A DNA stretch of 64,000 bases from Pseudomonas phage PhiPA3, in the sequence record HQ630627.1; one strand, 5' to 3'. Positions within the stretch are counted from its first letter, which is position 1. Each line of letters opens with the position of its first letter. This document shows, piece after piece, positions 2,192 to 64,000 of this stretch. Made by a program: the position numbers and the translations under genes. The notes under the pieces were generated by a model. That model did no database searches. It was not told the origin of the DNA and was given only the letters and a program-made list of their open reading frames with translations.

Positions 2192-2202
2192 GACAACATA
2201 AT

Positions 2203-2225
2203 AGCCTCTCCGTAATGGAGAGGCT
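2203..2225 (+). terminator. hairpin agcctctcc-gtaat-ggagaggct followed by TTATGCCG
   Basis: A 9-bp GC-rich stem sits directly after the stop of the acidic protein gene. The same loop and core (tccgtaatggag) recur at 33791. Confidence 0.5.
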
Positions 2226-2267
2226 ATTATGCCGGATCTTATGATCTTAGAACTTGAGGTATATCTC

Positions 2268-3911
2268 ATGCCCTCAGCAACAGTCCCATTGCCGGACGTA
2301 TATGAAACAATTACCCGTAAGGTGGCTGTTGACGTCGTAAGGCAAGTCGCGCAGTACATGACCTTGCCGGAACAGACTGAAGTCTATTTACCGGGTCGCT
2401 CGGATACCGTTCCTATGAACGATGGCATGTTTGGTAATTGCTGTGATACAGCTAACGCCGTGCATTTCGATCCAGAGGAACGAGTTACTATTACTTACGA
2501 TGAAGTCGCTGAAGAGAACTTTACACTTTCTACAGCTGTAATGAACAACGAGAATTTCCCGGTGTTCTACGACGAAACTCGTGATGTTATTATGCGTCCA
2601 ATTCGTCGCTTCGTTGACTTTCGTATTGACTTTGAATATCAAGCTCCAAACGTAGTATTGGCTCAACGCTGGTTAGACGATCAACGCATTCGTTTAAGTT
2701 CGGGTGTGGGAGATCTGACGATGTCGTTGACCTACCATTACAACGTACCACCCGCTTTATTGGGATTGATGAAGGGTCTGTACGACACCATGCAGAACTC
2801 CTGCTGGCCGACAGAGTGGACCTTCCGCGAATGGATGGAAAAATATTGGGCCCAACCCCAAACCGAGATGACCACTTTGATCGGTACGCACCCCACTCTG
2901 ACCATTTATGAGCGTCAAGTGGATGTAGTGGGTCACTTTGACTTTATCAACTCTCCTGAGACTCCTCAGCAATCTAGTGATAAAGCTGGTGGCTACACAG
3001 TTAACTTCAGTTACATCTGTCGTTACGAGCGTCCAACGCATATTCGGGTTACTTACCCGATGATTATGCATCAATGTCCGATTCCGAAAGTCTTCCGTCC
3101 TAAACCGATTTATGAAAACTACCAGCAAGCTGATCGCAAGGTAACCAATCTACGGGGTTCACTGGAGAAAGCTCTGATTTTGATGCGCAGCCGCGGCGTG
3201 GATTACATCCAACATCCAGATACTGACGATTGGCATACCGATGATAAACCCATTCAACGCTTTACATTTTTTAATGGATTGCTTTGTTTGGATAAAGATG
3301 ATCCCACACAGCTACTGGATCTTTCTAAGCTAGGACGATTCACATTTACTGGTTGGTGGTTAGAGTTCTTCAAACAAGAAGGGGCACACGCAATCGCCGA
3401 TGGTTCGTTCTTTGAGTTTAGACTCTACCAGAACAACCAGAGAATTCGTGTACCTCTAACTATTGATCCGGGTACGTTGATTGTGCGTTCGACAATGCCT
3501 CTGGATCCACATCGGTATTATCACATACAGATCTCATTGGTGAAGAACCTCTACGCTATCAACGATAGATATTGGCGTTGTATTTCTCGTTACCCAACTT
3601 GCTGTTGGCAACTCTTCCATCTCTTTAACCTAGGGATTGGTAAGAGACCAATTGAGCAGATGGAACTTCTTGGTTTGTCTGGTCCTCGTCCTCCCGAAGG
3701 GGATTGTGGTGAGGAAGGTAAGACAGAATACGTGAAGGACATACCACATTTCCCACGCGGGATTGTGAAATGGGGCGATATCGCAGAGGCTCGTGATGAG
3801 CAGGATAAGAACATCATCGGTGGTCCTGGTGAATCGGGTTATGTAAACCAGAACACCTTTGGTCCAACTAATGTTCTATTTGCAAATATCATCTCTGAGC
3901 GTAAAAGTTAA
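2268..3911 (+). CDS. hypothetical protein (547 aa), probably virion-associated
   Basis: Long ORF. I chose the start at ATG 2268 (GAGG about 10 nt upstream), not ATG 2229, because 2229 lies inside the recurrent post-hairpin TTATGCCG element. Confidence 0.5.
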   Translation: MPSATVPLPDVYETITRKVAVDVVRQVAQYMTLPEQTEVYLPGRSDTVPMNDGMFGNCCDTANAVHFDPEERVTITYDEVAEENFTLSTAVMNNENFPVFYDETRDVIMRPIRRFVDFRIDFEYQAPNVVLAQRWLDDQRIRLSSGVGDLTMSLTYHYNVPPALLGLMKGLYDTMQNSCWPTEWTFREWMEKYWAQPQTEMTTLIGTHPTLTIYERQVDVVGHFDFINSPETPQQSSDKAGGYTVNFSYICRYERPTHIRVTYPMIMHQCPIPKVFRPKPIYENYQQADRKVTNLRGSLEKALILMRSRGVDYIQHPDTDDWHTDDKPIQRFTFFNGLLCLDKDDPTQLLDLSKLGRFTFTGWWLEFFKQEGAHAIADGSFFEFRLYQNNQRIRVPLTIDPGTLIVRSTMPLDPHRYYHIQISLVKNLYAINDRYWRCISRYPTCCWQLFHLFNLGIGKRPIEQMELLGLSGPRPPEGDCGEEGKTEYVKDIPHFPRGIVKWGDIAEARDEQDKNIIGGPGESGYVNQNTFGPTNVLFANIISERKS

Positions 3912-3929
3912 TAAGGAATAGGTGATTCA

Positions 3930-5348
3930 ATGTCACTCTTTGTTGAAGAGGAAGAACCACTTCCTAAGAACCCCGAAGTTGATCCGGTGGTACCTAAAGC
4001 CAGGCCAGATACTTTCCGTGGTATTGCGGTTGATACCAAGTTTATTCCACGCAGCTCTATGCTCAGGTGGATTAACGGTGCGAACTGGACCGGTACGTAC
4101 TTTGCACAGAAGCTTGACGAAACACAAGAGCCAACTCCATTGGCTCTACATCGTCAGCCTCCATACCAACAGTACATTCGAATCAACGGCATCAACATCA
4201 AGGTCAACCAGACGCTGGATATTTCCCAAGACGAGCGCATTCGCACATTCTCCGTTACGGCCACTGGTCACACCTATCCTGGTCTGACTGCTAACTACGG
4301 GGATATGTGGGTAGCCGATGTGGGAGATGGTCGGATTGGTTTATTCACTGTTACTTCTGCTCGTCGAGAAACATTCCTACGAGATTCAACTTACGCCATT
4401 GAACTGAAGATGGTCAGTTTCCTGACTCCACAACAAATGGAGGATTTGGAAAGGAAAACCATTCTAACGTATTACTGGTCGGCAAGTGCCCTAGGGGCCG
4501 GTTGTAATCCCTATGTAACTGAGCAGCAACAAGAAGACAGTAAGAACTTTGCCGCACTGCGTTCCGAAATCATTCGTCGATATATCACTGATTTCTACTC
4601 CAAGGAACACAGTACATTTCTGGTGCCCGATCAACTAGCTAAAACCTACGATCACTTTGTCACCAAGGCCATGCTAATGATGGTTGATACGCAGACTGAT
4701 GGTCGCATGCGTTTGGTGAAACTGTTGAACGTAATGTCGGAACCGGTGATGTCGCAACCTACTGTTTGGGATGCACTGGTGCGTCAGGATTCTGGTCGCT
4801 TCTGTGATAATACCGAACGTGCACATCTTGTGAATACGCGTATTTCCAGATGGCGTCCTGAATTACAGGCAATTGGTTTCTCGGGGATTGCTCGATTTGT
4901 ATTCCCAATTGATGCTCCGACAGATGTAGATTCGCAATACGACGGTGAAGACCGTGCACGACCAGAAGGTATTCCTTTCCATGAAGGACGTCCTCGTAGA
5001 CCTGAACCAGGTCCATGGCGTTCTCAGGAAGAACGTGATCTAGAATGGTTCAAACGTAAGCCACAACAATTGGTTGACGTAGCAACTGCCTGGAAGACAC
5101 CCTCCGACATTAAGCCTGTCGTAGTGGATGACTACTATGTATTCTCGCAATCATTCTACTACCAAACTCCAGTTACCCAATCTAAATTGGAACAGCTGGC
5201 TTGGCAGATGATCAACAATGAGCCTTTAAACGTTGACTCGCTTCGTGCAGTCACTAAATGTTGTTTGGGTTGGGATAACCTTGAAAGGTTCTATTACCAC
5301 CCGGTTTTGATTGCATTGCTGAAATACGCAGTGAGGATTGGTACATGA
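3930..5348 (+). CDS. hypothetical protein (472 aa)
   Basis: Long ORF with an AGGAATAGG ribosome-binding site and tight spacing to the next gene. Confidence 0.5.
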   Translation: MSLFVEEEEPLPKNPEVDPVVPKARPDTFRGIAVDTKFIPRSSMLRWINGANWTGTYFAQKLDETQEPTPLALHRQPPYQQYIRINGINIKVNQTLDISQDERIRTFSVTATGHTYPGLTANYGDMWVADVGDGRIGLFTVTSARRETFLRDSTYAIELKMVSFLTPQQMEDLERKTILTYYWSASALGAGCNPYVTEQQQEDSKNFAALRSEIIRRYITDFYSKEHSTFLVPDQLAKTYDHFVTKAMLMMVDTQTDGRMRLVKLLNVMSEPVMSQPTVWDALVRQDSGRFCDNTERAHLVNTRISRWRPELQAIGFSGIARFVFPIDAPTDVDSQYDGEDRARPEGIPFHEGRPRRPEPGPWRSQEERDLEWFKRKPQQLVDVATAWKTPSDIKPVVVDDYYVFSQSFYYQTPVTQSKLEQLAWQMINNEPLNVDSLRAVTKCCLGWDNLERFYYHPVLIALLKYAVRIGT

Positions 5349-5932: not shown

Positions 5933-7307
5933 TAAAACGCTACTCATGCGTGAAGTGAATAATGTTATTCAGTCTGGTGATGGACATTACAACTTCCGCA
6001 TGGAGATAAAGATCCTTGCTAATAAGAAATGGATCACTCCAGTTCGGTTGGATCATTATCGCCTAGTGCGTGACTATTCATCTGGACAAGTGGGTGATGA
6101 TCGTACAGTAGAGTTCCTGATGAACTACGGGGACTTTGCCTACGACATCCTACCTTATCGTGATAACCTCATTGTGGAGTACACTGAAGTTCCGTTACGG
6201 GAAGTAAATTCTGCGCGGGACTGGGACAAGCGTTCGACTACGAAACGCTATCGGGGTATCCTCAACATGAGTGGTCAATCAAACCCTGCGTTATCTTCTA
6301 AGAACTCATTGCTGCAATCACGTGAAGCATTGAATCAGATCTCGATGATCCCCATTCAGATGCAGCTCGTAGATGAATTGACTTACCGTGTTATGATGGC
6401 GTCGTATGGCAACACATTTGTGAACATGACGACTAAAGACATGGTAATCGCATCACATCACGAGGTCTTTGCGGCATTGGGTGGCACGGATGATCAACGT
6501 TTATTGGGTTGGGATATTGCCGATGGCTGGAATCCAGATGTTCATTACCAGATCGGTTTGCCAGATGGTATCCGCTTAGCTGATATCCCTCGATTTCTAC
6601 AGAACGATGAAGGTGGAATTTACCCCACTGGGATGGGTCGATATATTCAGAATCAGATCTTCTACATGTATCCGTTGTTTGATACAACTAGATTCAATAA
6701 GAAGACTAGGGTTCTGAACCTGATCAATATTCCCAGTGACCGTTACGAAGGCGCTGAGAAGACGTATAAGAGCACTGACCGACATGTGACGGTGATAGCC
6801 ACCGGTAATGCATCTTCGCTCGATGACGGGCTTGCTACGGTCTTACAACAGGGTAATGGTGTTCGCTTTGGTAATGCTAACAACCTGTTGACAGATCAAG
6901 CTGTCACCAAAGACAACAAGATGTTAATGGACCGGGCATCTAACTTGTATGAAGTCAATATTGGAAATCTCCAAACTGGCTTTAACAACACCCGATGGGC
7001 AAATGAGCGGGTAACCGCCAACCCTTATAAACAGTATTCGATTATGGCACAACGCCAAGGCCAGCAATTGGATCTGGAATGGGTTAACGGTAATCCCGAT
7101 GAATTGTACCCTGGAATGCCAGTGAAGTTTTTTACCATATCTGGCGACACTGTAAAAATTTACCACGGTACCCTATTAGGTGTAGGTGAACAACGAACCG
7201 CTTCTGATGCGTCTCCAGTAGTCAATCGGCATGTCAGTAAGTGTCAGTTGTCCGTCTTTGTCAACCGGTTTGAAATCGTAGATGACACTATAAGCCCCAC
7301 CCCTTAA
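5922..7307 (+). CDS. hypothetical protein (461 aa)
   Basis: Long ORF overlapping the previous stop. Its stop codon lies in the loop of terminator hairpin 7295-7317. Confidence 0.5.
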   Translation: MSVDKTLLMREVNNVIQSGDGHYNFRMEIKILANKKWITPVRLDHYRLVRDYSSGQVGDDRTVEFLMNYGDFAYDILPYRDNLIVEYTEVPLREVNSARDWDKRSTTKRYRGILNMSGQSNPALSSKNSLLQSREALNQISMIPIQMQLVDELTYRVMMASYGNTFVNMTTKDMVIASHHEVFAALGGTDDQRLLGWDIADGWNPDVHYQIGLPDGIRLADIPRFLQNDEGGIYPTGMGRYIQNQIFYMYPLFDTTRFNKKTRVLNLINIPSDRYEGAEKTYKSTDRHVTVIATGNASSLDDGLATVLQQGNGVRFGNANNLLTDQAVTKDNKMLMDRASNLYEVNIGNLQTGFNNTRWANERVTANPYKQYSIMAQRQGQQLDLEWVNGNPDELYPGMPVKFFTISGDTVKIYHGTLLGVGEQRTASDASPVVNRHVSKCQLSVFVNRFEIVDDTISPTP

Positions 7308-7768: not shown

Positions 7769-7778
7769 GGTATAAGGG

Positions 7779-8650: not shown

Positions 8651-8662
8651 TGCAACATAATG

Positions 8663-8681
8663 CCCCACCTAACGGGTGGGG
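8663..8681 (+). terminator. hairpin ccccacc-taac-gggtgggg followed by ATTATGCCG
   Basis: GC stem after the stop of the macrodomain gene. Confidence 0.6.
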
Positions 8682-8732
8682 ATTATGCCGCTATTGGCTG
8701 AGCAGATTCGTATATTCAAAACATTTTAAACA

Positions 8733-8754
8733 CTATATTACAAATGTGATATTA
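8733..8754 (+). promoter_or_regulatory. early-promoter-like dyad motif CTATATTACAAATGTGATATTA
   Basis: One of four near-identical motifs. Each sits about 40 nt downstream of a terminator and 26-33 nt upstream of an ATG. It resembles the AT-rich TATATTAC-type early promoters of phiKZ-like phages, as I recall them. Confidence 0.45.
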
Positions 8755-9892: not shown

Positions 9893-9914
9893 CTATATTA
9901 CAAAAGTGATATTA
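9893..9914 (+). promoter_or_regulatory. early-promoter-like dyad motif CTATATTACAAAAGTGATATTA
   Basis: Second copy of the motif, about 30 nt after terminator 9846 and 25 nt before ATG 9939. Confidence 0.45.
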
Positions 9915-12658: not shown

Positions 12659-12725
12659 AGAGTAATATACGTGTACTCGTATCCTAAACAGATACGAGTG
12701 CATTATTTTATTCCGTGAGGTAGGT

Positions 12726-17209: not shown

Positions 17210-17218
17210 TGACATAAA

Positions 17219-17240
17219 GCCCCTCCCTTCGGGGAGGGGT
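17219..17240 (+). terminator. hairpin gcccctccc-ttcg-gggaggggt
   Basis: GC stem with a UUCG loop. Confidence 0.6.
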
Positions 17241-18452: not shown

Positions 18453-18539
18453 GGGAATTCGACGCTGATGGTTCTCGCGTTATTCATGGACGTCCTGCGT
18501 TAATTCGGTCCGGTTTCACCGGGTCTGTAACCTCCAACT

Positions 18540-18592
18540 GGGAGCCCTTCGGGGCTCCCTTTTATTTCCTTCTTTTTTTTTTGTTTTAGGCT
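18540..18592 (+). terminator. intrinsic terminator gggagccc-ttcg-gggctccc + long T tract
   Basis: An 8-bp GC stem followed by TTTTATTTCCTTCTTTTTTTTTTTG. Confidence 0.75.
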
Positions 18593-18607
18593 AAGACGAC
18601 ATAAAGG

Positions 18608-18645
18608 ATAGGGAGAAGCGGTACGTCATGTCCGCTTCTCCCTAT
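18608..18645. other. perfect 14-bp-stem hairpin atagggagaagcgg-N10-ccgcttctccctat
   Basis: Perfect inverted repeat inside the ORF-free region, with no adjacent U-run. Confidence 0.5.
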
Positions 18646-19238
18646 TGCAGCTCCCACGGCCTGATAGGAACCACATAATAACCGGCATCAGATATCTTGA
18701 GCTTCATTTGTGGATGCTCCTCTTGAGCTTAGCATTTTTCACTTCCAGATCTCCAATAACCACAATTGTTCGGCTTACAGGTTTCCAGTCAGGTAGATTA
18801 CCAGCAGTAGGGTATCTAACTTAAAGGAAATCGCAGCTTTGTCTTCACGTAGTATTACTACAGCTGAGTATATTTTTTAATCAATGTCTATTGAGTATTG
18901 TTTTAATAGAGGTTTTTGAAGATTATACTGGGGTTAGTTATGATTCTGTAGACGAAGGAAAAGGATCCTCCGGAGGAGGGGGGTTTTATTTAATAATAAA
19001 CAGAGTTACGTTAGTAACTCATTCCTTATTCTTCTCTTATAAAGTCCTTAGTCTGTTAAACTAAAATCCTTATTCCTAAGCGTAAGCTAAATATACTACA
19101 AGCCTCCCCTCAAAGGGAGGCGTTTATGTTGTATTATATTTTTGTTTAAGTTATTATAAATGTCGACGCTAAGGCCTCTATTTTGCGTTTCTATGCATTA
19201 TCTCCATTAAAGGGTACCGATGGCCATTACGGCATAAA

Positions 19239-19254
19239 GCTCCCCGTAGGGAGC
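19239..19254 (-). terminator. hairpin (minus strand gggagc...gctccc read as ggctccc-tacg-gggagc + TTTATGCCG)
   Basis: GC stem just downstream of the stop of minus-strand gene 19261..19671. Confidence 0.5.
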
Positions 19255-19260
19255 CGTATG

Positions 19261-19671
19261 TTAAACTACACCAAATACTAGGTCGTAACCACGTTTAGCA
19301 CCATTGCTGGTAATAGCACGGGCATCACTGAGGGTGTAGGACTGTGGAGTGGTAGCGTCTTCGTTAGTAGCGAAGTCGATAATGTAGCCAGCTTGGAACG
19401 CATGTCCCCAACCACTACGAACTTCACCGTTTATTGCAGTACCGAAAACTTTCTGCCATTCTTCACTGGTAACGCGCATGACGTCCAGTAGAACCCATTG
19501 ACGAGCTACTACGAGAATATTGATCGGCTCAGCCTTAATGAACGCTTTGGCAATAACGGTACGCAGTTCTTCCAGCATCGCTTTAACACGATCACGGTAT
19601 TGTTGACGTTCTTTATCTACTTTAGCCATCTGGTCCAGTTCATCAACACTGGGGTATACGTCACAGAGCAT
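19261..19671 (-). CDS. hypothetical protein (136 aa)
   Basis: ORF, the last gene of the minus-strand cassette. Confidence 0.5.
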   Translation of the reverse strand: MLCDVYPSVDELDQMAKVDKERQQYRDRVKAMLEELRTVIAKAFIKAEPINILVVARQWVLLDVMRVTSEEWQKVFGTAINGEVRSGWGHAFQAGYIIDFATNEDATTPQSYTLSDARAITSNGAKRGYDLVFGVV

Positions 19672-20185: not shown

Positions 20186-20563
20186 TTAATTAGACCAAGC
20201 GTCATCGTCCATACCACCGATAATGCTACCCGGAACAATTTTGAGCGAGTAGTCTTCTTCTTTATCGATGTCCCATGGGATAATGCCACACGAACTGAAC
20301 GGCAGAAGAACATATTGGTCTTCTTCAGACGTCACAGTGTTCCGGTGCTTACCCCGTTGGATGGCGAGATACGATTTGCCTTTCACTTTGATGATGTGGT
20401 GGAACAGTTCTAGGTCAGGTTCCTGACCCAGTCGACGGCAACCGTCATAATAGCCTTTGTTGGCTACAACCTTCACGAAGTCTTCGGTGTTCTCCCGCAT
20501 GAGCTGGAGGGCATCAGAGCCGAGCTGGTGAGGACTGATAAACGTGATACCTCTCGATGTGTT
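20186..20563 (-). CDS. DnaB-family helicase, exon 2 (C-terminal 125 aa: H3 and H4 motifs)
   Basis: The reading frame is open without a start codon from about 20575. The motifs ITFISPHQL (compare SQLNR) and LAIQRGKHRNTV (compare KQRNGptGtV) occur with DnaB-like spacing. The stop is at 20186-20188. Confidence 0.6.
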   Translation of the reverse strand, partial: NTSRGITFISPHQLGSDALQLMRENTEDFVKVVANKGYYDGCRRLGQEPDLELFHHIIKVKGKSYLAIQRGKHRNTVTSEEDQYVLLPFSSCGIIPWDIDKEEDYSLKIVPGSIIGGMDDDAWSN

Positions 20564-22353
20564 CAGTAAGGTTCGTTACACCTTACCCGCGCCATTATGC
20601 GCAGCTCCAGGCTTTCCCTGGATGTCCAGACTATATCTTCACCCTCGGTTTCCCGATAGGGTGCTTCCCACTTCGAGTTCACTTGAACTCTACTCCCCAC
20701 TACGGGATAGTCGTTGAACCTTCTCCGTGCCTTTCGGTTTAGGAGCTTGGCTGCTGATTGTCCAATTTCTACACTTGTTAAACCTTCATAGACTCCTTTC
20801 GGGTCTATTGTGGTAGTAGAACTCTGAAGGAGTTTCCAGCAATTCAGGAAGTACTCGTAAAGCATTACGGCTTTACGGCCCTAAATAAGTAACCCTTAGT
20901 TTCCTTATTAGTGCTCAGATTTAATCGAATTGTTTTCTCGTTTAGACCGGTTAGACGAGCTGCTTCTTTAATAGAAGCAACCTCAGTTATAACACCGGTA
21001 TTCACGCAGGTAACCAGAATGGCTTTAGCTTGTATTGGCTTGTCGATATACGCCGAATTATCGTACTTATTCGAATCCGTGCGGATTATCCAACGCTTAG
21101 CGTAGATGTATTTCAATCCACGACTTAGGTCGACTTGCAACTCCGCTTTAGATCTCCCACAGTGATTCGCTATCTCCTGTAAAGTAGCGAAGACATGGAG
21201 AGTATTCGTTTCTAGATCACTTACGTAGTAAGGTCCAGACAGATTATTCCTACTGTAATGAATTTCACAGTGCGGAACATGCTCTTTAAAACGAATGACG
21301 AAGTTGTCGATGGTTTCGAACCGATATGGTATTCCATACGCTGTCGCAATCTGTTTTACACGATTGAACTTCCGGCTCTGTCCAGTCCGCGTATCGAAAA
21401 CCGTTATGGTGAATATCGATTTACCAACTTTAAAATCGTTTATATCAACTGTTTCGTAATGCCATGGTGTTAAGTCATCCATGGTTTTTATTTCATACCG
21501 CTTGCCCCAAAGATAACCAGGCAGTTTAGTTTGAAAACTTACAGTTGAGTTACCTACACCAATACCGAGACTTCTGTTCATCTCGCTAATGGACCTGTAC
21601 GCAGTAACTTCTCCAGTTAGGACATCCCTAACCTTCGTACCAATAGGTGTTCCATTAAGACCGACTTCCAATGCATGCTGTGCATTTTCCGAAGCATCAC
21701 ACCATTCTAGGTTAGATACGTCGTTATTGGTCTTAACTCCATCAATATGGTTAACGAGCGGTCTTTTTACGAAACATTCGTTTGGAACCCATGCCAAAGC
21801 TACTAACCGATGAAATTTTACGGTACGATTGCAATTTCGATCGGGTACTCTGATATAACACGTGTAGTAACCTTTATCATCGAGTTTCACATCCGTGATA
21901 ATCGAATTCGTTTTGGTATCTAGCACATGCCCATTGGTATCAATAGCGTATCTTGGGTAGTTTGGTATATGCCTGAACCCATCGCAGTAGTAAATCGGTT
22001 CTGCGAATGTCATTATCTTTCCGCACCTTATTCTCAAAAGCGTGTTGTCCACGTCTTTGAAAATTATTTTGTCAAGGTGTTGGGATAGATTGGGAATGTC
22101 TTCACATTCGTACCAAGCAAGTAGACTGAGCCACTCGACTGTGACTGTATACTTTTTACCAAATAGAACGATATTAACTAATCCATTCTCTTCCGGTAGG
22201 GAAACATGTTTCCCCAATCGGTCAAATATTTGACCGTTTAAATCAATTCGGTATTCTGAACTACCAGGAATCTTTTTAATCACAGCCACACCCCAAGTTA
22301 AAAAATCAACTATAGGATATCTGTAATTAAAGGTAGGTAATTTAAGGAGTGGT
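20564..22353 (-). mobile_element. group I intron (~1.79 kb) with embedded HNH homing endonuclease ORF
   Basis: The minus-strand core elements are P AATTGCTGGAAAC (~20848-20836), Q AATCAGCAGCC (~20759-20749), R GTTCAACGACTATC (20719-20706) and S GAAGATATAGTC (20640-20629). A candidate internal guide sequence ATAGTT pairs with the exon sequence AACTAT. A gtaagg-N9-ccttac hairpin sits just before the 3' splice site, which follows a G. Confidence 0.65.
20865..22289 (-). CDS. HNH homing endonuclease (474 aa) with C-terminal NUMOD/IENR-type DNA-binding helix-turn-helix
   Basis: NUMOD4-like N-terminus IKKIPGSSEYRIDLNGQIF. The HNH core is HRLVALAWVPN...VNHIDGVKTNNDVSNLEWCDASEN. The C-terminus reads IKEAARLTGLNEKTIRLNL. 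It starts with GTG 50 nt after the exon-1 stop. Confidence 0.85.
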   Translation of the reverse strand: MAVIKKIPGSSEYRIDLNGQIFDRLGKHVSLPEENGLVNIVLFGKKYTVTVEWLSLLAWYECEDIPNLSQHLDKIIFKDVDNTLLRIRCGKIMTFAEPIYYCDGFRHIPNYPRYAIDTNGHVLDTKTNSIITDVKLDDKGYYTCYIRVPDRNCNRTVKFHRLVALAWVPNECFVKRPLVNHIDGVKTNNDVSNLEWCDASENAQHALEVGLNGTPIGTKVRDVLTGEVTAYRSISEMNRSLGIGVGNSTVSFQTKLPGYLWGKRYEIKTMDDLTPWHYETVDINDFKVGKSIFTITVFDTRTGQSRKFNRVKQIATAYGIPYRFETIDNFVIRFKEHVPHCEIHYSRNNLSGPYYVSDLETNTLHVFATLQEIANHCGRSKAELQVDLSRGLKYIYAKRWIIRTDSNKYDNSAYIDKPIQAKAILVTCVNTGVITEVASIKEAARLTGLNEKTIRLNLSTNKETKGYLFRAVKP

Positions 22354-23511
22354 ATAGTTCCTCATGCGACGGAACAGCAGACGAATATCATCACCTGCTA
22401 CTTTCGCATCCAGACCAGTCTTTGGTAGCATGTTCAGGTAGTCAACCATCAGCATCTGGATTTCGTAACCCTGGGACTGGAGACCATCAAGGTAGTTGGT
22501 GAAACCACCAATGGTAAATTCAGTCGGGTCAAAACGGATCATCTTAACGTTGAAACCGTTCTCTTGCAGACGTGCACAGACATAAGCCGCAGCTTCTCGT
22601 TTGTCGATGTCAGCAACAATGATCTCTTCACCCGTTTCATTCTCACGGATATACTTGTAAATAGTTAGCAAGTTATCAGAGATTTCGTTTTCCAACGTAA
22701 CAAACAGCAACAGAGGCTTCTTCGTCTTGTCACGCATGAACGGACGGTTAAACAGAGCGATGTGCGAGAACAGCAACATTAGCATGTATGACTTGAAGTT
22801 GTGTTGCAGAGCCGCAGTGGTGATAAACTCGCCTCGACGAAATGCCCCCAAGCTACCCAGGATACGGTTAAATCCTTTCCAACCTGTTTTGAATGCACCG
22901 TCAGCAGACAGAGTAGTCTGTACCTGCTCAAAGAAATCTTCTACTGCTTCAGGCTCACTGAAGTCCAAGCAACCCATTTCAGCTGGGTGTCTACTTTCAG
23001 CACGCGCTTTGACATACGGATCGAGCTTAGCGCCCATCTCGTTAATAGCACCAGCGATATCGCCACTACCGCCACGGTTGAAAAGAAGCTTCTGCGAATA
23101 CTCTCGAACGATCTGCTTGATCTTTTCATCATTGAGGTGTGCGTTCAGCGCACTGCGACGAGAGTTGATAGCCCGCATAATGGACATCCCGTCAGGGAAA
23201 TCCTCTTTTACGCCATTGACTACCGCTTCGTACAGATAGTTTTCTTCCCGGCAACTCACTTGTACGGCTTGTAGAACTTCCGCCAAACTCGGGAAATCGT
23301 GCTTTGCTTTACTGTTCAGATCACCGACGAGCTTACGTAGTTCTAAGAACGTTTGCCGACCATGGTCGTGGTCAACAGTGGTATCACGGACTTCCAGTGT
23401 ATTGATGATTTCCGATATCAGTTCAGTTGATGGTGCAGCAGGAGAATCTTCACGGTGTTCCAAGCACAGCAGGGTAACACACTGTACGAGCAGTTGTTTC
23501 GGGGAGGACAT
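22354..23511 (-). CDS. DnaB-family helicase, exon 1 (N-terminal domain plus RecA-like core through Walker B)
   Basis: The ORF carries LLLFVTLENE (H1a-like) and IQMLMVDYLNML (Walker B). It terminates 30 aa after Walker B, which is where the intron begins. The Walker A region is degenerate (TAALQHNFKS). Confidence 0.65.
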
Positions 23512-23645
23512 TTACAGCATCCTTGAGTGTGAATTTTTTAATGATGTACCGTGTACCATTTTGTTTCTAGGTAATTTGTCGCTAAAAATAATGCATATTC
23601 CTATGTAGACTGTTTTTAAGCCTTGGTCCACTATAGGTCTTACCG

Positions 23646-26509: not shown

Positions 26510-26622
26510 GCTGGAAAGGGAACACTCCGATACATGGAGAATGGCAACGTCCGTTATCTTGAAGACGGAGTGGCCCGCCGCTTAGACACTCCCGTGATCT
26601 AACGCGGTAAAAGAACGCATAG

Positions 26623-26644
26623 GCCCGCCCCGAAAGGAGCGGGC
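26623..26644 (+). terminator. hairpin gcccgcccc-gaaa-ggagcgggc followed by TTTATGCCG
   Basis: GC stem after the major capsid protein gene. Confidence 0.55.
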
Positions 26645-26680
26645 TTTATGCCGTCAAGGCCAGTGTAAAAAATCTCACAT

Positions 26681-26700
26681 CTATATTACGTTGGTGATAA
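26681..26700 (+). promoter_or_regulatory. early-promoter-like motif CTATATTACGTTGGTGATAA
   Basis: Third copy of the motif, 37 nt after the terminator and 33 nt before ATG 26733. Confidence 0.4.
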
Positions 26701-32049: not shown

Positions 32050-32078
32050 GCCCCACCTTCGGGTGGGGCTTCTTTTCG
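32050..32078 (+). terminator. hairpin gccccacc-ttcg-ggtggggc + TTCTTTTCG
   Basis: GC stem with a UUCG loop. Confidence 0.65.
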
Positions 32079-33766: not shown

Positions 33767-33790
33767 GCCTAGTGATAATGACGACATAGA

Positions 33791-33833
33791 GCCCCTCCGT
33801 AATGGAGGGGCCTTATGCCGTTATTTTTTTTTA
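33791..33833. terminator. bidirectional hairpin agcccctcc-gtaat-ggaggggcc + CTTATGCCG + T9
   Basis: It lies between convergent genes, the + strand gene ending at 33766 and the minus-strand gene ending at 33831. Confidence 0.6.
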
Positions 33834-37356: not shown

Positions 37357-40059
37357 ATGGCTCAACGTCAAGTTAATGAGGTGGCGTATCCGAAGCTACA
37401 GGCGATCCGCTTGGGATCAACTGCAACGCCGACGAACGCACTCCTCAACCTTCTGCGTAAGGATCCAAACGCATTGGGTACGGAAGCCGCGAAACCTCGG
37501 GTTAACGTAAATCGTTTCACCCTGGACAAGGTTTCGCGCGACACCTCACAAGAGATCATCGATAGCGACTCTATTATGCAGTTGCTCCCTGACCTTGAGT
37601 TGGTGGAGACTGTATATGTAGGTTCGATTATCGACCCGAAGGCATTGTCAGATACTGATTTGACCTTCTCTGTCGATCAGGCTATTTTCGACAGTGAACT
37701 CTCCAAACACCTGCTTGAGCCTGTTGAGAAGTATTTTAAACGAGACTATAAGATTGACGAGCGCTTGGACCTGATCCTACGCGATTGTTTGTTCCGTAAA
37801 GGCGCTTCGATCCTAGCCGTTCTTCCCGAGAACGTACTAGATAATCTTATTAATGGTCGTCGTCAGGTTTCTATGGAGACCTTCGAACAGATCCGTAATC
37901 GCGTAGAGAATACTACTACTGATAACCTCGGGTTTTTGGGGCATCCCACTGATCAAACTATCTCGTTGGAGGGTTACGCTAATAACGCTACCACCAACCG
38001 GATACGCGGTGACAAACATCTTACCGTCACCGATAACTTCAACGTTTTGAAAGTCCCTGGGATGTCCCGCCGTGTACGCGAGATGTCAATCGCGAAGAAA
38101 CTTCGCGGTAACCAGGTTTCTTTGGAAGCTGAGGTACATAACTTCGGCAACGATGAAATCGAGAAGCTGTATCAGAGTCGCTTAGGGGGTACGGAACATA
38201 CACAAGTTGTAACGTCTCCTCGTTACATGGACCGTCCTTCGGTTGGCCATCCGCTGATCCTACCGTTACCAATGGAATCGGTCGTACCGGTGTTTGTTCA
38301 AGGTCGTCCTCATGAACATATTGGTTATTTCCTGTTGGTGGACCAACATGGTTATCCTATTTCGAAAGATTCGACCCGCGACTTCTATGGTGAACTGCAA
38401 GCTGGTTGGAAAGGTGGTAAGAACTCAGATAACAACTCCGAAGTTCTGCGACTGACCCGCGAAGCATTGGGTAACAATACTAAGCGACAAGATTTTGAAA
38501 TTGATGAGATCCAACAAACGTACAACGCTATTATCGTGAACGATCTGAACAACCGTCTGCGTAATGGCATGTACGACCAAGAACTGGAAATTGGGATCAC
38601 TGAAGAAATTCAGCGGATCATGCTCTATCGTTCTTGGAAAGCTAAGAATACTCAACTGGTATTCATTCCAGCAGAACTACTCACCTACATTGCTTTTGAC
38701 TATAATGTCAATGGTATCGGTGAGACGTTGCTGTCTCGGTCAAAAATGATCGCCACTATGCGTTCGACTCTGCTCATGGCCGAGACCATCGGCGGGATGC
38801 GTAACGCGGTAGGTCGTAAACGAGTGAATATCACACTCGATCCAGATGACGTTGATCCGGAACAAACGATCTCAAATATTCAATCCAACATCATGGAATC
38901 TGCACATCGTAGTTTCCCGTTGGCCGCTCCAGACCCTACTCAGGCAATGGACCACCTAATCCGTTCTGGCTTTGATTTTGCCATCAATACCAATGGTGCT
39001 GATTATGCAGAGACCAAAGTTGAATACGATGATTACAACACATCGGTAAACGCAGGTAATCCAGACCTGCAAGACCGTCTGCGTCGTATGCATATTTCGG
39101 GTATGGGTGTACCACCTGAGAAAGTGGATCCGATGTCTTCACCGGACTTCGCAACATCGGTGGTACAAAACGACCTCGTAATGTCCCGTCGTGTACGCGA
39201 TAAACAGAAGACATTCTGTCAACATCTGTCTAAGTTCATCCGTTCGTTCGTTACTCACAGTTCCATCATCCGTGAAGAATTGAACAAGATTGTAACAGAC
39301 AATGCTAAGATGTTGATTTCCCCAGAATTCAAACACATGACCGTACAGGAAGTGGTGGATGAATTCATCCTGTCGATCGAAGTTTCCCTACCGACTCCTG
39401 ACAACACGCAACATGAGCGTCAGTCTGAAGCATTGGAGAACTATGATCGCCTGCTGACTACTGCATTGGAATCGTATATCACTCCGGAACTATTCCCGGA
39501 TGAACTGACTCAGATTCCTGGATTGACAGACCAAGTCATGAATCATGTGAAAGCAATGTTCAAACGCCAGTTCATGGCACAGAACAATATTCTGCCGGAA
39601 CTGAATATCTTGACTGAGATGGACGGTGATAAACCGGCATTTAGTCTGTTGGACTTCGCAGCACTGCAACAAGGTACAATGGCGAAAGCCTTCTTGGCCT
39701 TTGCCAAGCATACACAGGAATCCAAACTCCATCTGGAGAAACTCTATAAGAACGTTATCGAAGGTAACGACGAGAACGGAATTACTCCTGGTGGCGGTGG
39801 TGATTTTGGGGGTGGCAATGACTTCGGTGGTGGAGACGAGTTCTCTAACATCGATGAAGGTGGTGGTGATATGGACCTGGGTGTCGATGGTGGCACTGGG
39901 GACGGCAGCGAGCAATCCGATGATTTCGGTGCTCCTGAATCGGATGTACTTGATGAGGGTACAGAAACCGATGAAGACAAACCACAAACCGATGGACTCG
40001 AAGACCCAATGGCTGAGGCGGAAGCTGAAGAAAACGGGAAAGACGAGGACAAGTTGTAA
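37357..40059 (+). CDS. candidate portal protein (900 aa) with Gly/Asp-rich acidic C-terminal tail
   Basis: The assignment rests on size and position: it lies between the major capsid protein block and the fibre paralog array, as the phiKZ portal gp129 lies before gp131-135. No sequence-level proof is possible by eye. Confidence 0.35.
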   Translation: MAQRQVNEVAYPKLQAIRLGSTATPTNALLNLLRKDPNALGTEAAKPRVNVNRFTLDKVSRDTSQEIIDSDSIMQLLPDLELVETVYVGSIIDPKALSDTDLTFSVDQAIFDSELSKHLLEPVEKYFKRDYKIDERLDLILRDCLFRKGASILAVLPENVLDNLINGRRQVSMETFEQIRNRVENTTTDNLGFLGHPTDQTISLEGYANNATTNRIRGDKHLTVTDNFNVLKVPGMSRRVREMSIAKKLRGNQVSLEAEVHNFGNDEIEKLYQSRLGGTEHTQVVTSPRYMDRPSVGHPLILPLPMESVVPVFVQGRPHEHIGYFLLVDQHGYPISKDSTRDFYGELQAGWKGGKNSDNNSEVLRLTREALGNNTKRQDFEIDEIQQTYNAIIVNDLNNRLRNGMYDQELEIGITEEIQRIMLYRSWKAKNTQLVFIPAELLTYIAFDYNVNGIGETLLSRSKMIATMRSTLLMAETIGGMRNAVGRKRVNITLDPDDVDPEQTISNIQSNIMESAHRSFPLAAPDPTQAMDHLIRSGFDFAINTNGADYAETKVEYDDYNTSVNAGNPDLQDRLRRMHISGMGVPPEKVDPMSSPDFATSVVQNDLVMSRRVRDKQKTFCQHLSKFIRSFVTHSSIIREELNKIVTDNAKMLISPEFKHMTVQEVVDEFILSIEVSLPTPDNTQHERQSEALENYDRLLTTALESYITPELFPDELTQIPGLTDQVMNHVKAMFKRQFMAQNNILPELNILTEMDGDKPAFSLLDFAALQQGTMAKAFLAFAKHTQESKLHLEKLYKNVIEGNDENGITPGGGGDFGGGNDFGGGDEFSNIDEGGGDMDLGVDGGTGDGSEQSDDFGAPESDVLDEGTETDEDKPQTDGLEDPMAEAEAEENGKDEDKL

Positions 40060-40069
40060 CGACATAAAA

Positions 40070-40089
40070 GCCCCACCTTCGGGTGGGGC
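40070..40089. terminator. bidirectional hairpin gccccacc-ttcg-ggtggggc + TTTATGCTC
   Basis: It lies between convergent gene ends 40059 (+) and 40101 (-). Confidence 0.65.
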
Positions 40090-40100
40090 TTTATGCTCTC

Positions 40101-41405: not shown

Positions 41406-41414
41406 ACAATCTTA

Positions 41415-41427
41415 TGTGAATTTCACA
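41415..41427. promoter_or_regulatory. 13-bp perfect palindrome TGTGAATTTCACA in divergent intergenic region
   Basis: An operator-like dyad between the minus-strand 40101..41405 gene and the + strand fibre array. Confidence 0.35.
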
Positions 41428-52489: not shown

Positions 52490-52507
52490 AAAATATAAAA
52501 CCTCCCT

Positions 52508-52536
52508 CGGTTCTCGGGGGAGGTTTTATAATGCTA
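52508..52536 (+). terminator. hairpin cctccctcgg...cgggggagg + TTTTATAAT
   Basis: GC stem followed by a U-rich tract. Confidence 0.5.
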
Positions 52537-52582
52537 TGTAGGCTGAGTAACTTTTTTCTTAAGCCCCATTAGAGGTTTTAGC

Positions 52583-54639: not shown

Positions 54640-54659
54640 GGAGTCCCTTAGGGGACTCC
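54640..54659 (+). terminator. hairpin ggagtccc-ttag-gggactcc + TTTATG
   Basis: GC stem. Confidence 0.55.
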
Positions 54660-54757
54660 TTTATGTCGACTTTAAAATGCCTTACTGTATGAGTCTTATT
54701 TCTCTTAAGACGTGTAAGAAGTAGTTGAAAGACTCTCTTCACCCAAAGGAAGACACA

Positions 54758-60774: not shown

Positions 60775-60783
60775 CCCTTAAAA

Positions 60784-60812
60784 ATGGCCTCCGTTTGGAG
60801 GCCATTTTATTT
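60784..60812 (+). terminator. hairpin aatggcctcc-gttt-ggaggccatt + TTTATTTCG
   Basis: GC stem followed by a U-run. Confidence 0.6.
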
Positions 60813-60869
60813 CGTCTTATTTATCAGAGAAATAATATATTGGGGCCCAGTTAAAATTCAGGAAGCGAT

Positions 60870-61274
60870 ATGGACGGCATCGATAGCTTCACTAGCTTCG
60901 TCAATTCGGAATTACCTAAACGTATTGGTACTGAAGTTGATCCCTTAAAAGTCGGGCAGGATAAAATCGCTGTAAGCACCGGCGTAGGTCTTAGCGTTAA
61001 ATTCGTAGATCCGTTGGAAATCCTACCTAATCAGGGTCTGATAACTGCGGAAAAACTCCCATTACAAGAAGACGGTACGGCGATACTCCCGCAACCGCCT
61101 AAAGGCGGTATTCTTTTGAATCTCGCTATTATTCACTTGAACGATGGTTCAGTGATTGAAGTGACTGGTGTGCACGTCAGGGATGATGTAATTCTGGTTA
61201 TCCCCACGGAAGATTTTGCAACGCTCCAGGATACTGCCGTTTCAGTGACAGTATCCTTCATTGGGGACCTGTGA
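60870..61274 (+). CDS. fibre N-terminal-anchor-domain protein (134 aa)
   Basis: Its N-terminus FVNSELPKRIGTEVDPLKVGQ..VSTGVGLSVKF is homologous to the first ~50 aa of 57493..60774. Confidence 0.45.
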   Translation: MDGIDSFTSFVNSELPKRIGTEVDPLKVGQDKIAVSTGVGLSVKFVDPLEILPNQGLITAEKLPLQEDGTAILPQPPKGGILLNLAIIHLNDGSVIEVTGVHVRDDVILVIPTEDFATLQDTAVSVTVSFIGDL

Positions 61275-61335
61275 TAGGTCTGGATTTGATGTACTTTAAA
61301 ACGATCGTTGTAAACCCTTGAATAGGTGTTAGAAC

Positions 61336-62373
61336 ATGGCTATTCTTAAACGCGCACAATCTTCCATCCAAGGCCTACCGGCCGCACTGACTAGTCTGCA
61401 AGACAATATCGACGCTGAAGCTCAGGCTCGTGCAGACGCTGATGGTATACTGTCCACTCTGGTTACCACCAACAAACAAAACTTGGTATTAGCCATTAAC
61501 GAAGTTTTCTCGACTGCTGCTGAAGGTCGTGACAACGCTACTATCGCCAGACAGGAAGTTTCTGATCTGGACGCAGTTACTCTGAAGGCAGCTAGTAATT
61601 TGTCCGATCTGGCTGACATTGCAGTAGCTCGTGGCAACCTCCAGACCCTGTCTGAAACTGAAATCGAAGCCCTGATCGATGCTGCTAAACTGGCAGGTGG
61701 TGTTAGCTACGATGTAGCCACTATTGCTGCACGTGATGCACTCACTGGACTCACCACTGCTGATCGCGTGTGGGTAGCTGACGACGGCGATACCAAGTGG
61801 GCTATCTATAAACCCACTGCGGTTGATGGGACGGGTAAAGGTACAGCTTGGCTGAAGCTGTACGACGAAGACGCCCTGACCAATTCGCTGACCGCCGCTG
61901 GTATCAAAGCTGCTTACGAGAGCAATGATGATACCAATGCCTTCACCGATGCTGAGAAAGCCAAACTGGCCTACATCACTGTCGCCGCTGCGGTTGATCT
62001 GGCTGCGCTGGCTAAATCCAGCGATGTGGTCGCTAAAGCCAGTCTGGTACAAGACCTTGAAGGTGGTACTGCTACTGATGCCGCTCCGTCTGTTAAAGCG
62101 GTGGTTGATTATGTAGCTGCTCATGCAGGCTCTGGTGGTGTACAAGCTGCATTGGAAAACGTTGTAGTCACCGATGGTCAGATCACTCTGGCAAATGCTC
62201 CGGCAGGTGGCCTGGCTGGCGTACTTAACTTCGCTACCGTTCGGTATATCACTGGTGGTGTTGCTTATGATGCTCCGGTTGTTGCTACTGCCGACCCGAA
62301 AGTGTTCGATGTATCCACTGATACTGCCAACCAGTGGGATGGTAACACTGTACAAGTTCAGTATGTGTACTAA
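61336..62373 (+). CDS. tail-fibre-like protein (345 aa), Ala/Thr/Asp-rich
   Basis: ORF with fibre-like composition. Confidence 0.45.
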   Translation: MAILKRAQSSIQGLPAALTSLQDNIDAEAQARADADGILSTLVTTNKQNLVLAINEVFSTAAEGRDNATIARQEVSDLDAVTLKAASNLSDLADIAVARGNLQTLSETEIEALIDAAKLAGGVSYDVATIAARDALTGLTTADRVWVADDGDTKWAIYKPTAVDGTGKGTAWLKLYDEDALTNSLTAAGIKAAYESNDDTNAFTDAEKAKLAYITVAAAVDLAALAKSSDVVAKASLVQDLEGGTATDAAPSVKAVVDYVAAHAGSGGVQAALENVVVTDGQITLANAPAGGLAGVLNFATVRYITGGVAYDAPVVATADPKVFDVSTDTANQWDGNTVQVQYVY

Positions 62374-62385
62374 TCTGTAACAGGA

Positions 62386-62416
62386 TAGAGCGTGGGCCTA
62401 GTGCCCACGCTCTATT
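62386..62416 (+). terminator. hairpin atagagcgtgggc-ctagt-gcccacgctctat
   Basis: Perfect 13-bp stem followed by TTTAAG. Confidence 0.55.
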
Positions 62417-62419
62417 TAA

Positions 62420-63619
62420 GTGGTGAAAATTATGGGTATTCTTGTTGCTAATGACGGTGATGTGGTAGTAGCCTCTATTGCGGCTCGTGATGAGATCGCG
62501 ATTAAGCGCCCACAAATGCTCGTCCTGGTAGAAGATGCAACTGCTGACCCTGTCTTCGGTGGTGGGTCCGTCCAGTATATTTGGGATCATGTTGCGTTGG
62601 GCTGGTCTCCAATCTGGTCTTCTCGTAAACCTAACCTTACGTTTGTAACCGAAGAGAAAGTTATTACGGGTGGTCAAGTTACTGCTGACCATGTCGTTAA
62701 AGATAATGTCGTGTTGTCGGCTATCATTCTGGATACCGACAATACAATCCTAAGTGATGCTGTTCCAACTGTAAGTGGTACTGCGATCAATTTAGGGACT
62801 AACACGTACGACGGTAAGAGACTACATTACACGTATGCGTATGGTAGCCTCACTCAACTCATCGAAAATATTTGGGAAACCAAAGCTGACCTGACTTACG
62901 TCAATACGAACTTTGCTAGTCAGCAATATGTTCAGGATGCAATAGGTGCAGGGAATTTCCTAACCGCAGCCGACTTGGATGGTTATGCCACTGAAACCTG
63001 GGTAACCAATCAGGAATATCAGACCAGTACTGACGTTGATAGTAAAATCACCGCTGCGCTCTCTGGGTATGCGACAGTAGCGTTTGTTAATGGTAAAGGT
63101 TATCAAACGGCTTCTGATGTTACAACATACGTAACGAGTCTTGGTTATCAAACGAGTAATCAAGTTGATTCTAAGATCTCCGCAGCCCTTAACGGTTATG
63201 CAACACAGAGCTATGTAACTTCACGTGGTTACATTACCGATGCCGCTAATGACGGTAAGAAATACATCCGCACTAACCAAGGTTGGGCGGAATTGACGGT
63301 TAGTTTCGATACATATTCTCTGTTGTCGAGTACTTCTGCTTCTGGGGATTATGTAGTTAACGCTACCAACCAACAGTCGGTTGCTTTAACAGCGACGGTT
63401 ACACGTAATGTAAGCTTTACCAATGGACCGGCTAACCGTACGATCACAACAGCATTAATCATGGTGGGTGCTAAGGCACCCAATGTCACCGGTTCCAATG
63501 TTAAATGGCAGGCCAATACTGCACTGACCGATGCAGATATGGGCGCAACCAAAACAGTTATCGTGGCGTTCTGGGATGGCATCGACACTTGGATCCTGAC
63601 CAAAGGTCCTTATTACTAA
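62420..63619 (+). CDS. tail fibre protein (399 aa) with Y.T..DVD.KI.AAL.GYAT repeats and a C-terminal tip domain paralogous to that of 57493..60774
   Basis: The C-terminus TVSFDTYSLLSSTSA....WDGIDTWILTKGPYY matches KTFDTYNLKSSTVTA....WDGETTWIIARGAAY of the collagen-like fibre. The start is 62420 or ATG 62432. Confidence 0.5.
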   Translation: MVKIMGILVANDGDVVVASIAARDEIAIKRPQMLVLVEDATADPVFGGGSVQYIWDHVALGWSPIWSSRKPNLTFVTEEKVITGGQVTADHVVKDNVVLSAIILDTDNTILSDAVPTVSGTAINLGTNTYDGKRLHYTYAYGSLTQLIENIWETKADLTYVNTNFASQQYVQDAIGAGNFLTAADLDGYATETWVTNQEYQTSTDVDSKITAALSGYATVAFVNGKGYQTASDVTTYVTSLGYQTSNQVDSKISAALNGYATQSYVTSRGYITDAANDGKKYIRTNQGWAELTVSFDTYSLLSSTSASGDYVVNATNQQSVALTATVTRNVSFTNGPANRTITTALIMVGAKAPNVTGSNVKWQANTALTDADMGATKTVIVAFWDGIDTWILTKGPYY

Positions 63620-63630
63620 AAGACGGCATA

Positions 63631-63655
63631 TCGCCCCACCCGAAAAGGTGGGGCT
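63631..63655. terminator. bidirectional hairpin cgccccacc-cgaaaa-ggtggggc + TTTATGTTG
   Basis: It lies between convergent gene ends 63619 (+) and 63664 (-). Confidence 0.6.
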
Positions 63656-63663
63656 TTATGTTG

Positions 63664-64000
63664 TTATGCACGGAACATACTGAAGTACATAGCGTCGATA
63701 AATTCGAAGTCCATGTGAATCAGCTTCTCCATGCGAAATCGCCAGAGCGTATACTTCTTAGCTTCGACATTAATGTTTGATACGTCGTGCTCAAAGATCT
63801 TAGGTCCAATGAAATTGAAACAGTTCATTTTGACCTTACCCAGCTCTTCTGCATGATACTTTACCCACGGAATAAAATCGTAAGTAATGTACATAGCAAA
63901 TAAGGCGTCCATAAAGAACGGGGACAGTTCTTCCATGGAGTGTTTAACGATCTCGACGGTGGTAGATTGCCCATAGAGCTCTTTGATGATCTCTACGAGT
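63664..64000 (-). CDS. hypothetical protein, 5'-truncated at window end
   Basis: The minus-strand frame is open, with no stop, from 64000 through the track ORF 63664..63936. Confidence 0.45.
   Translation of the reverse strand, partial: LVEIIKELYGQSTTVEIVKHSMEELSPFFMDALFAMYITYDFIPWVKYHAEELGKVKMNCFNFIGPKIFEHDVSNINVEAKKYTLWRFRMEKLIHMDFEFIDAMYFSMFRA

Follow-up and report, generated by a model that had tools for sequence, protein, structure and literature searches.

Mapping of phage phiKZ transcript ends by cappable sequencing on the Oxford Nanopore (ONT) platform (ONT-cappable-seq) identified a motif, BCCYCCCCHWWDGGGRRGGBYTTATKYYGT, that is common to 61 intrinsic terminators and consists of a hairpin with a TTAT region after it (Putzeys et al. 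2024, Microlife; PMC10914365). In phage 201phi2-1, a motif A said to resemble the phiKZ motif occurs in 59 terminators, a motif B co-occurs with it in 21 and lengthens the hairpin, 15 terminators are bidirectional, and the longer stem is read by the authors in terms of antitermination (PMC11512511). Here we analyze a 64,000-nucleotide (nt) stretch of Pseudomonas phage PhiPA3 (HQ630627.1; the window, meaning this whole stretch), in which an intergenic module recurs that consists of a CATAA-type arm, a GC-rich hairpin, and a TTATG-type box. An initial annotation had listed 11 such sites and proposed that they are coupled terminator-promoter or RNA-processing units. Our analysis indicates that the repeated modules are very probably the intrinsic transcription terminators of this phage, of the sequence-specific type described for phiKZ and 201phi2-1. 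As an element, this is the already known phiKZ-type terminator, found in another phiKZ relative; two aspects go somewhat beyond the literature we consulted, namely that the upstream arm mirrors the box and that the box is invariant family-wide.

Judged by its letters, the downstream box TTATG(CCG/TTG/TCG)(T) of the window is the published phiKZ terminator box. Both phages have a GC-rich CCYCCCC/GGGRRGG hairpin with a 4–6 nt loop followed by YTTATKYYGT, both place it between genes after stop codons, in the gp97/98, 120/121, 129/130, 142/143, 144.1/145, and 146/147 neighbourhoods, and in both the signal can be read from either strand at convergent gene pairs. They differ in that the window has its own stem sequences and in that the published consensus begins at the hairpin, without the upstream CRRCATAA arm. 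Bidirectional intrinsic terminators of the A-tract, hairpin, U-tract type are usable on both strands (e.g. Ju et al. 2019). The window modules share with canonical and bidirectional bacterial terminators a GC hairpin, a U-rich tail, a predicted release point 7–9 nt after the stem, and a complement of the tail on the upstream side. Here, however, the tail is a specific UUAU(G/U)YYGU rather than a plain U-run, the upstream arm mirrors it base for base, interrupting A/T included, and the module is conserved across phage genera with 37–53% GC.

A GC-rich hairpin with the flanks ascribed to it is present at each of the 11 sites first listed. On the sense strand these sites fold with −16 to −28 kcal/mol, corresponding to z of −3.4 to −7.5 against dinucleotide shuffles, of which 0–1 in 200 fold equally well. 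Three members lie beyond that list, at 18596–18645 (box on the minus strand), 12671–12716 (TTATTCCGT), and 60781–60815 (TTATTTCGT); TTATT replaces TTATG in the latter two. Stems at these 11 + 3 sites are perfect and 6–15 base pairs (bp) long with at least 5 G:C pairs, apart from slight interruptions at 26622–26644 and 52497–52527, and the loops are UUCG, GUAAU, and similar. The core tccgtaatggag reported to be shared by 2203 and 33791 is indeed common to both, with similar CYCTCC stems and a GTAAT loop, a combination that also recurs in phiKZ (T040, T059). Rfam and tRNA scans of the window gave no match at any module, and a generic terminator scan flags several module sites.

The association between hairpin and box is far from random. 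TTATGYYG occurs 15 times in the window, and 12 of these copies lie directly 3′ of a strong hairpin, although hairpin-adjacent positions make up ~0.27% of the window (binomial P 5.6e-29). The motif enrichment around hairpins that had been suggested as a check is found both in the window, where TATG lies ≤5 nt from the stem end on 15 of 64 hairpin arms (1.6 expected, P 3e-10), and in phiKZ, where it lies near the stem end on 74 of 204 arms (10.4 expected) of the 250 kb assembled for comparison. TTATKYYGT is observed 13 times in the window against 4.7 expected, and the ungapped 30-nt published consensus finds 4 sites at ≤3 mismatches and none in shuffles (0 expected). Module tails contain 5–7 U per 10 nt, broken by A and G; as initially noted, they are more specific than a simple U-run, and they form a defined UUAU(G/U)YYGU that matches the phiKZ box. 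Nine of the 11 listed sites carry TATG on the plus or sense strand; at 52490, TTTTATAATG forms the first tail, and the real TATG comes 8 nt beyond it. Deviation from YTTATKYYGT is seen at 17211 (plus strand) and 52497.

Functional evidence comes from phiKZ. PHROG matches in the window include phiKZ-type major head, sheath, and virion proteins, and the gene order parallels phiKZ gp97–gp146. The capsid protein is 82% identical to that of the Pawinskivirus group (PA1C, PS119XW, HPP-Temi) and 69% to that of phiKZ; at the DNA level only ~1 kb of the window's first 20 kb matches GenBank phages. At least eight window modules occupy the same intergenic positions as phiKZ modules (gp97/98, 104/105, 120/121, 125/126, 129/130, 142/143, 144.1/145, and 146/147), with different stems. 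We took phiKZ ends from the bioRxiv supplement, in the portion covering transcription start sites (TSSs) P008–P126 (119 of 149) and transcription termination sites (TTSs) T034–T076, and all statements on phiKZ ends refer to these entries. Seven of these eight phiKZ modules have a mapped 3′ end on the same strand, and the gp125/126 module has one on the opposite strand only; the TTSs T046, T057, T059/T060, T064, T065, and T067, listed at most of the regions, each lie at −1 to +3 of the G/T (K) position of the box. Between 70 and 168 kb of phiKZ there are 24 hairpin-adjacent TATGs in sense orientation, and for 13 of them a TTS falls at −1 to +3 of the G (mode +2); two more TATGs with a TTS are on arms scored antisense by gene calls, for a total of 15 within −3 to +3. 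These positions place the 3′ ends 6–9 nt past the stem, the usual release distance. The terminator half of the initial proposal is therefore borne out, by the motif match and by 3′ ends at the box of the phiKZ orthologues.

Mapped 3′ ends could also arise by RNA processing, if an endonuclease cut within the AU-rich box or an exonuclease trimmed the RNA as far as a protective hairpin. ONT 3′ ends cannot tell termination from processing, the sequence specificity of the box exceeds that of a plain U-run and might suit a nuclease site, and northern blots cited in the phiKZ supplement mention extensive processing, for other phages. The ends nevertheless lie 6–9 nt past the stem, as expected of canonical release, whereas exonuclease-trimmed ends are usually closer to it. 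Stems of 7–9 bp are too short for RNase III. Eight 201phi2-1 terminators, selected to cover the sequence motifs, showed activity in uninfected P. chlororaphis when placed in a terminator trap, an assay that measures read-through and not cleavage (PMC11512511). We regard processing as an unlikely source of these ends, and favor termination.

The same phiKZ data bear on the idea that the box is a promoter. The phiKZ late promoter is 5′-TATG-3′ (Yakunina 2015, PMC4666361; Chen 2026, PMC12809450); this consensus has its G as +1, is necessary in vitro, and is bound sequence-specifically by gp123, and a permissive downstream sequence is also needed in vitro, the determinant of which is undefined in the literature (Yakunina 2015, PMC4666361). 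The initial annotation had noted the likeness, and in a coupled terminator-promoter the non-virion RNA polymerase (nvRNAP) would start at the G of the box right after the hairpin. Some late promoters do adjoin terminators, at 6 nt in phiKZ P049 and within ~12 nt at window positions 2243 and 52538. Among the 119 of 149 TSSs used, none maps within 3 nt of any of 62 phiKZ hairpin-adjacent TATGs, against 15 TATGs with a TTS within −3 to +3 of the G; phiKZ has 3′ ends at the box without 5′ ends, a pattern that the initial annotation had named as refuting, so the promoter reading fails for primary 5′ ends, and TTATG as a late-promoter start site is ruled out by these TSSs. In mapped late promoters +2 is mostly A or T and no hairpin is required, whereas the box has T before TATG and YYGT after it, and in many members K is T. 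No hairpin accompanies P119L, which is the late promoter studied best, or its homologue at window position 23600, and early-type rather than late promoters follow modules 8653 and 26617. A promoter within the box is accordingly very unlikely, and the phiKZ data point to its TATG as the place where RNAs would end, not where they begin.

A terminator followed by a promoter is nonetheless a real architecture, in which the promoter is its own element, 12–50 nt past the box. Eight of the 62 phiKZ TATGs have a TSS of early, middle, or late type 6–49 nt further downstream. Late TATGs follow modules in the window at 2240–2243, 52535–52538, and 54688–54691, and their phiKZ counterparts P054, P075, and P078 are mapped late TSSs. 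The early-type (virion RNA polymerase) box TATATTAC lies at 8734–8741, 9894–9901, and 26682–26689, each time 30–55 nt past a terminator hairpin, and the same layout is found at phiKZ gp104/105 and gp120/121 and in IMG/VR relatives (TATATCAT or TATATTAC).

A start codon is settled as well. The longest open reading frame (ORF) of the gp98-like gene opens at the ATG inside a terminator box, at 2229, which had been suspected not to be a start. Residue 14, at position 2268, is the first one covered by the PHROG alignment, a GAGG ribosome-binding site lies ahead of 2268, and phiKZ late TSS P054, the orthologous start site, maps downstream of the box ATG. Together these rule out 2229 and assign the gp98-like gene a start at 2268. 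An automatic annotation would probably make this gene 13 codons too long, and similar over-calls may occur at any in-frame box ATG.

Downstream of the capsid gene the module can be followed across relatives. The window, phiKZ, and all 10 of 10 IMG/VR relatives (68–85% identity over the C-terminal 249 residues of the capsid protein) keep CATA, hairpin, and T.TATG..GT, and the invariant alignment columns are the T, TATG, and GT of the box. An early-promoter box follows ~35–45 nt past the module in the window, phiKZ, and the IMG/VR relatives. Stems at this site are unrelated in sequence (GCCAGCAC, CCCCTACC, GCCCTCCC, GCCCGGC, and others), and HPP-Temi has a wholly different stem despite a capsid C-terminus 96% identical to that of the window. 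The module is also found in the Erwinia Agricanvirus and in Ralstonia RP12.

The upstream flank of the module, CRRCATAA, is the reverse complement of the downstream one, TTATGYYG, a point absent from the initial annotation, so the module is an imperfect palindrome around its hairpin. Both arms are present at seven sites (2194, 8653, 26617, 33783, 19229, 40059, and 63625); site 17211 has only the upstream arm, and at 19090, 54630, and 52490 the downstream arm stands alone or is joined by a degenerate TATA-type upstream arm. Between co-directional genes, in both phiKZ and the window, CATA is found ahead of the stem as often as TATG after it, and it is as frequent there as between convergent genes; the YYGT extension is clearly stronger on the sense side. 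Five window modules between convergent genes carry TATG on both strands, and in phiKZ each of the TTS pairs T051/52, T059/60, and T070/71 belongs to one palindromic module, with one site per strand. We take the upstream arm to be this box seen from the opposite strand, which terminates at these convergent pairs in phiKZ; stem extension would be a by-product or added benefit. At co-directional genes we can only guess that it blocks antisense transcription.

Stem extension as the sole purpose of the arm finds no support. Consensus flanks stabilize the fold by ~2 kcal/mol relative to shuffled ones, and at most sites RNAfold predicts pairs between CAUA and UAUG. Nevertheless, how far CATA lies from the loop is uncorrelated with how far TATG does, with a difference of 0 in only 5 of 22 phiKZ cases, and real flank pairs fold no better than chimeric ones (−5.23 versus −5.15 kcal/mol, P 0.54, n=52). 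Pairing of CAUA with UAUG is possible, and selection for it site by site is without support from either analysis. Published work gives only a hint of this arm: the 201phi2-1 motif B elongates the hairpin, as the CATAA arm does here, and from this description we infer that motif B may be the upstream arm.

Palindromy and repetition also raise the possibility of an element acting as DNA, either a palindromic site for a dimeric protein or a mobile or recombinogenic cassette. Promoter-early stem-loop (PeSL) repeats of T4-type phages are said to be near-identical and to promote recombination, and like the modules they are repeated intergenic stem-loops beside promoters in a large lytic phage. The flanks are mirror-symmetric as DNA even where RNA would not pair (A opposite C), one 20-nt hairpin is identical at 32050 and 40070, and modules flank a variable small-gene region. 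In contrast to PeSLs, the modules have stems that all differ, orthologous positions, and a promoter that is a separate element, and the near-identical copies expected of such a cassette are limited among window stems to the one identical pair (32050, 40070). Orthologous stems are wholly different yet keep their pairing, which is typical of a single-strand structure and not of DNA copied recently or of a duplex site recognized by sequence; across genera the positions remain orthologous, and the mapped phiKZ RNA 3′ ends account for the element. A DNA-level role is extremely unlikely by our assessment, and we retain termination as the function of the modules.

We propose the following mechanism. 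The nascent RNA would form a GC-rich stem of 7–9 bp, often with a UUCG or GUAAU loop, 1–3 nt upstream of the U-rich UUAU(G/U)YYGU, and phiKZ-type transcripts would end inside the box, ~6–9 nt after the stem, at the canonical distance of hairpin-driven release. The hybrid provided by the box (UUUAUGYY) is probably weak and mostly rU:dA. For 3′ ends that fall at the YY of UUAUGYY|GU, it would in its final form start at the G:C end of the stem, and the box would probably give a pause-type context, with G:C at the upstream edge of the hybrid, a pyrimidine 3′ end, and G just downstream, as in the consensus pause of multisubunit RNA polymerases (PMC4499132). This context would explain the conserved YYG. 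Weak hybrid and pause together would hold the non-canonical multisubunit phage polymerases until the hairpin releases the transcript. Because it presents this box to the opposite strand, the upstream (C)RRCATAA would make a unit able to work both ways, and in its consensus form could add ~2 kcal/mol of CAUA:UAUG pairing at the stem base. With separate promoters 12–50 nt downstream, early TATATTAC or late TATG(W)(R), each module would close one transcription unit just before the next opens.

A bolder extension, which we consider unlikely, is that the box is a polymerase-specific termination or pause signal, with gp123 capturing TATG in elongation as well and the mirror arm insulating. Capture of non-template TATG by this β-like subunit of nvRNAP would stall the enzyme 6–8 nt past the hairpin. 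If so, one recognition pocket would mark transcript starts and ends, a terminated polymerase would be released beside the next promoter, and the mirror arm would make every terminator an insulator against antisense transcription. Deep conservation of T.TATG..GT in Pseudomonas, Erwinia, and Ralstonia chimalliviruses (37–53% GC), though not in the Seoulvirus region covered, fits a signal co-evolving with the phage polymerases. We also asked whether a G in the box marks nvRNAP (middle/late) rather than virion RNA polymerase (early) units; sorted by the promoter class of the unit, the K position has 3 G versus 1 T in class E, and 16 G versus 7 T and 4 A in class L.

Several observations weigh against the terminator interpretation or narrow it. 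All functional evidence is transferred from phiKZ, whose capsid protein is 69% identical, and ONT 3′ ends resolve to a few nt and alone cannot separate termination from processing or trimming. Biochemistry of termination by the phiKZ virion RNA polymerase or nvRNAP was not found in the literature searched, and the roles given to the box, weak hybrid and pause context, are ones we infer. The box occurs on only about half of the window's strong intergenic hairpins, those at 7296, 9845, 15060, 18540, 20161, 32050, and 62385 ending in ordinary T-rich tails or none. The mirror arm is common at co-directional genes, yet antisense TTSs are not reported there in the phiKZ entries used. Finally, in ~25 kb around the capsid gene of a Seoulvirus (Salmonella phage SPFM11), hairpins lack the CATAA/TTATG arms and have ordinary T-runs; as the arms are kept in Erwinia and Ralstonia phages and absent from this Seoulvirus region, the box appears lineage-restricted within chimalliviruses rather than family-universal.

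For annotation, the modules mark transcription-unit ends and flag false start codons such as the ATG in TTATG at 2229, and a transcription map could be drawn by homology from them and from the early (TATATTAC) and late (TATG) boxes conserved just downstream. The box is conserved across chimallivirus genera while stems turn over, and is mirrored even at co-directional genes. Termination by non-canonical phage polymerases may thus have sequence requirements, and the presence of TATG at both transcript starts and ends is a hypothesis that is cheap to address in vitro.

The first module, a predicted terminator at 2194–2234 on the plus strand (z −7.5), lies between the co-directional gp97-like and gp98-like genes and has a perfect 15-bp stem (2197–2231), the 3′ box TTATGCCG (2227–2234), and the mirror arm CAACATAA (2194–2201); it is the positional orthologue of phiKZ T046 (TTS 101370). 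A putative late-promoter box, GATCTTATGATC, follows at 2235–2246 on the same strand with predicted start G2243, separate from the terminator and 12 nt past its G. phiKZ contains the identical 12-mer, and the G of that copy is the mapped late TSS P054 (101390). The module at 8653–8690 (plus strand, z −4.1) has its stem at 8663–8681, box TTATGCCG at 8683–8690, and mirror arm at 8653–8660; the early-promoter-like TATATTAC at 8734–8741 comes after it, as in the phiKZ gp104/105 orthologue. The additional member at 12671–12716 (plus strand, z −5.2) has a 13-bp stem and then TTATTCCGT, the K=T variant of the box. At 17211–17239 (plus strand, z −3.4) the putative terminator hairpin has only the upstream arm GACATAAAG; its full box CTTTATGTC reads on the minus strand, yet both neighbour genes are on the plus strand.

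Three modules lie close together near 19 kb. The additional member at 18596–18645, in a gene-poor stretch between convergent genes, has a 14-bp stem and TTTATGTCGT on the minus strand (z −5.6), a candidate terminator hairpin at 19102–19132 is followed by GTTTATGTTGT on the plus strand (z −4.2), and the module at 19229–19262 on the minus strand (stem 19239–19254, z −3.9) comes after the minus-strand gene 19261–19671, with TTATGCCGT on the minus strand (19229–19237) and a weaker CGTATGTT on the plus strand. The surrounding 808 nt between convergent genes, 18453–19260, contain no convincing ORF, no tRNA, and five or six hairpins (18540, 18608, 18966, 19003, 19102, and 19239); the phiKZ counterpart (~114.6–115.3 kb) is likewise unannotated.

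The module 3′ of the major capsid gene, at 26617–26654 on the plus strand (stem 26622–26644, box TTATGCCGT at 26646–26654, z −4.2), is the orthologue of phiKZ T057 (TTS 120629) and is followed by early-promoter-like TATATTAC at 26682–26689. Three modules between convergent genes carry boxes on both strands and are not assigned to either: 33783–33821 (stem 33791–33811, TTATGCCGT on plus and CTATGTCGT on minus, z −6.0) is the positional orthologue of the phiKZ gp125/126 module; 40059–40097, between gp129-like and gp130-like genes (stem 40070–40089, TTTATGCT on plus and TTATGTCGT on minus, z −5.5), has a phiKZ orthologue that terminates on both strands (T059, 133067 minus; T060, 133099 plus); and 63625–63664 has its stem at 63633–63654, with TTATGTTGT on plus and GATATGCCGT on minus (z −6.3).

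Three plus-strand modules remain. At 52497–52542 (z −5.5) the putative terminator hairpin 52497–52527 carries TTTTATAATG and is directly followed by a candidate late-promoter box, GCTATGTAGG, at 52533 (TATG 52535–52538); its phiKZ orthologue has both TTS T064 (145649) and late TSS P075 (145659). The hairpin at 54640–54668 (z −4.9) is followed by TTTATGTCG and then by the predicted late promoter CTGTATGAGTC at 54685–54695 (TATG 54688–54691), upstream of the sheath gene, and the phiKZ orthologues of this terminator and promoter are T065 (147179) and P078 (147221). After the gp146-like gene, the additional member at 60781–60815 (z −5.5) has a 12-bp stem and then TTATTTCGT, which is the same in its phiKZ orthologue T067 (152963).

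Some stems are repeated within the window. The identical 20-nt terminator hairpin GCCCCACCTTCGGGTGGGGC lies at 32050–32069 and 40070–40089; its GCCCCACC/GGTGGGGC stem recurs with another loop at 63633, and a shorter CCCCACC/GGTGGGG form is found at 8663. These repeated stems could be the product of convergence or of gene conversion between terminators.

Late boxes conserved with phiKZ late TSSs also occur independently of hairpins. CCTATGTAGAC at 23600–23610, upstream of the gp119-like and capsid genes, corresponds to phiKZ P063/P119L, and CTTATGTGAATTTCAC at 41411–41426 to P072; CTGTATGAGTC at 54685–54695 (P078) is grouped with them.

The DnaB-like helicase gene on the minus strand (20186–23511), the homologue of phiKZ gp118, is uninterrupted in phiKZ and HPP-Temi and split in the window. 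Its two parts, 22342–23511 and 20186–20500, match positions 1–239 and 258–350 of Pfam divDNAB, respectively. Between them lie an HNH/NUMOD1 homing-endonuclease-like ORF (20865–22289) and a full-length Rfam group I intron match (RF00028, 20607–20900, 83 bits).

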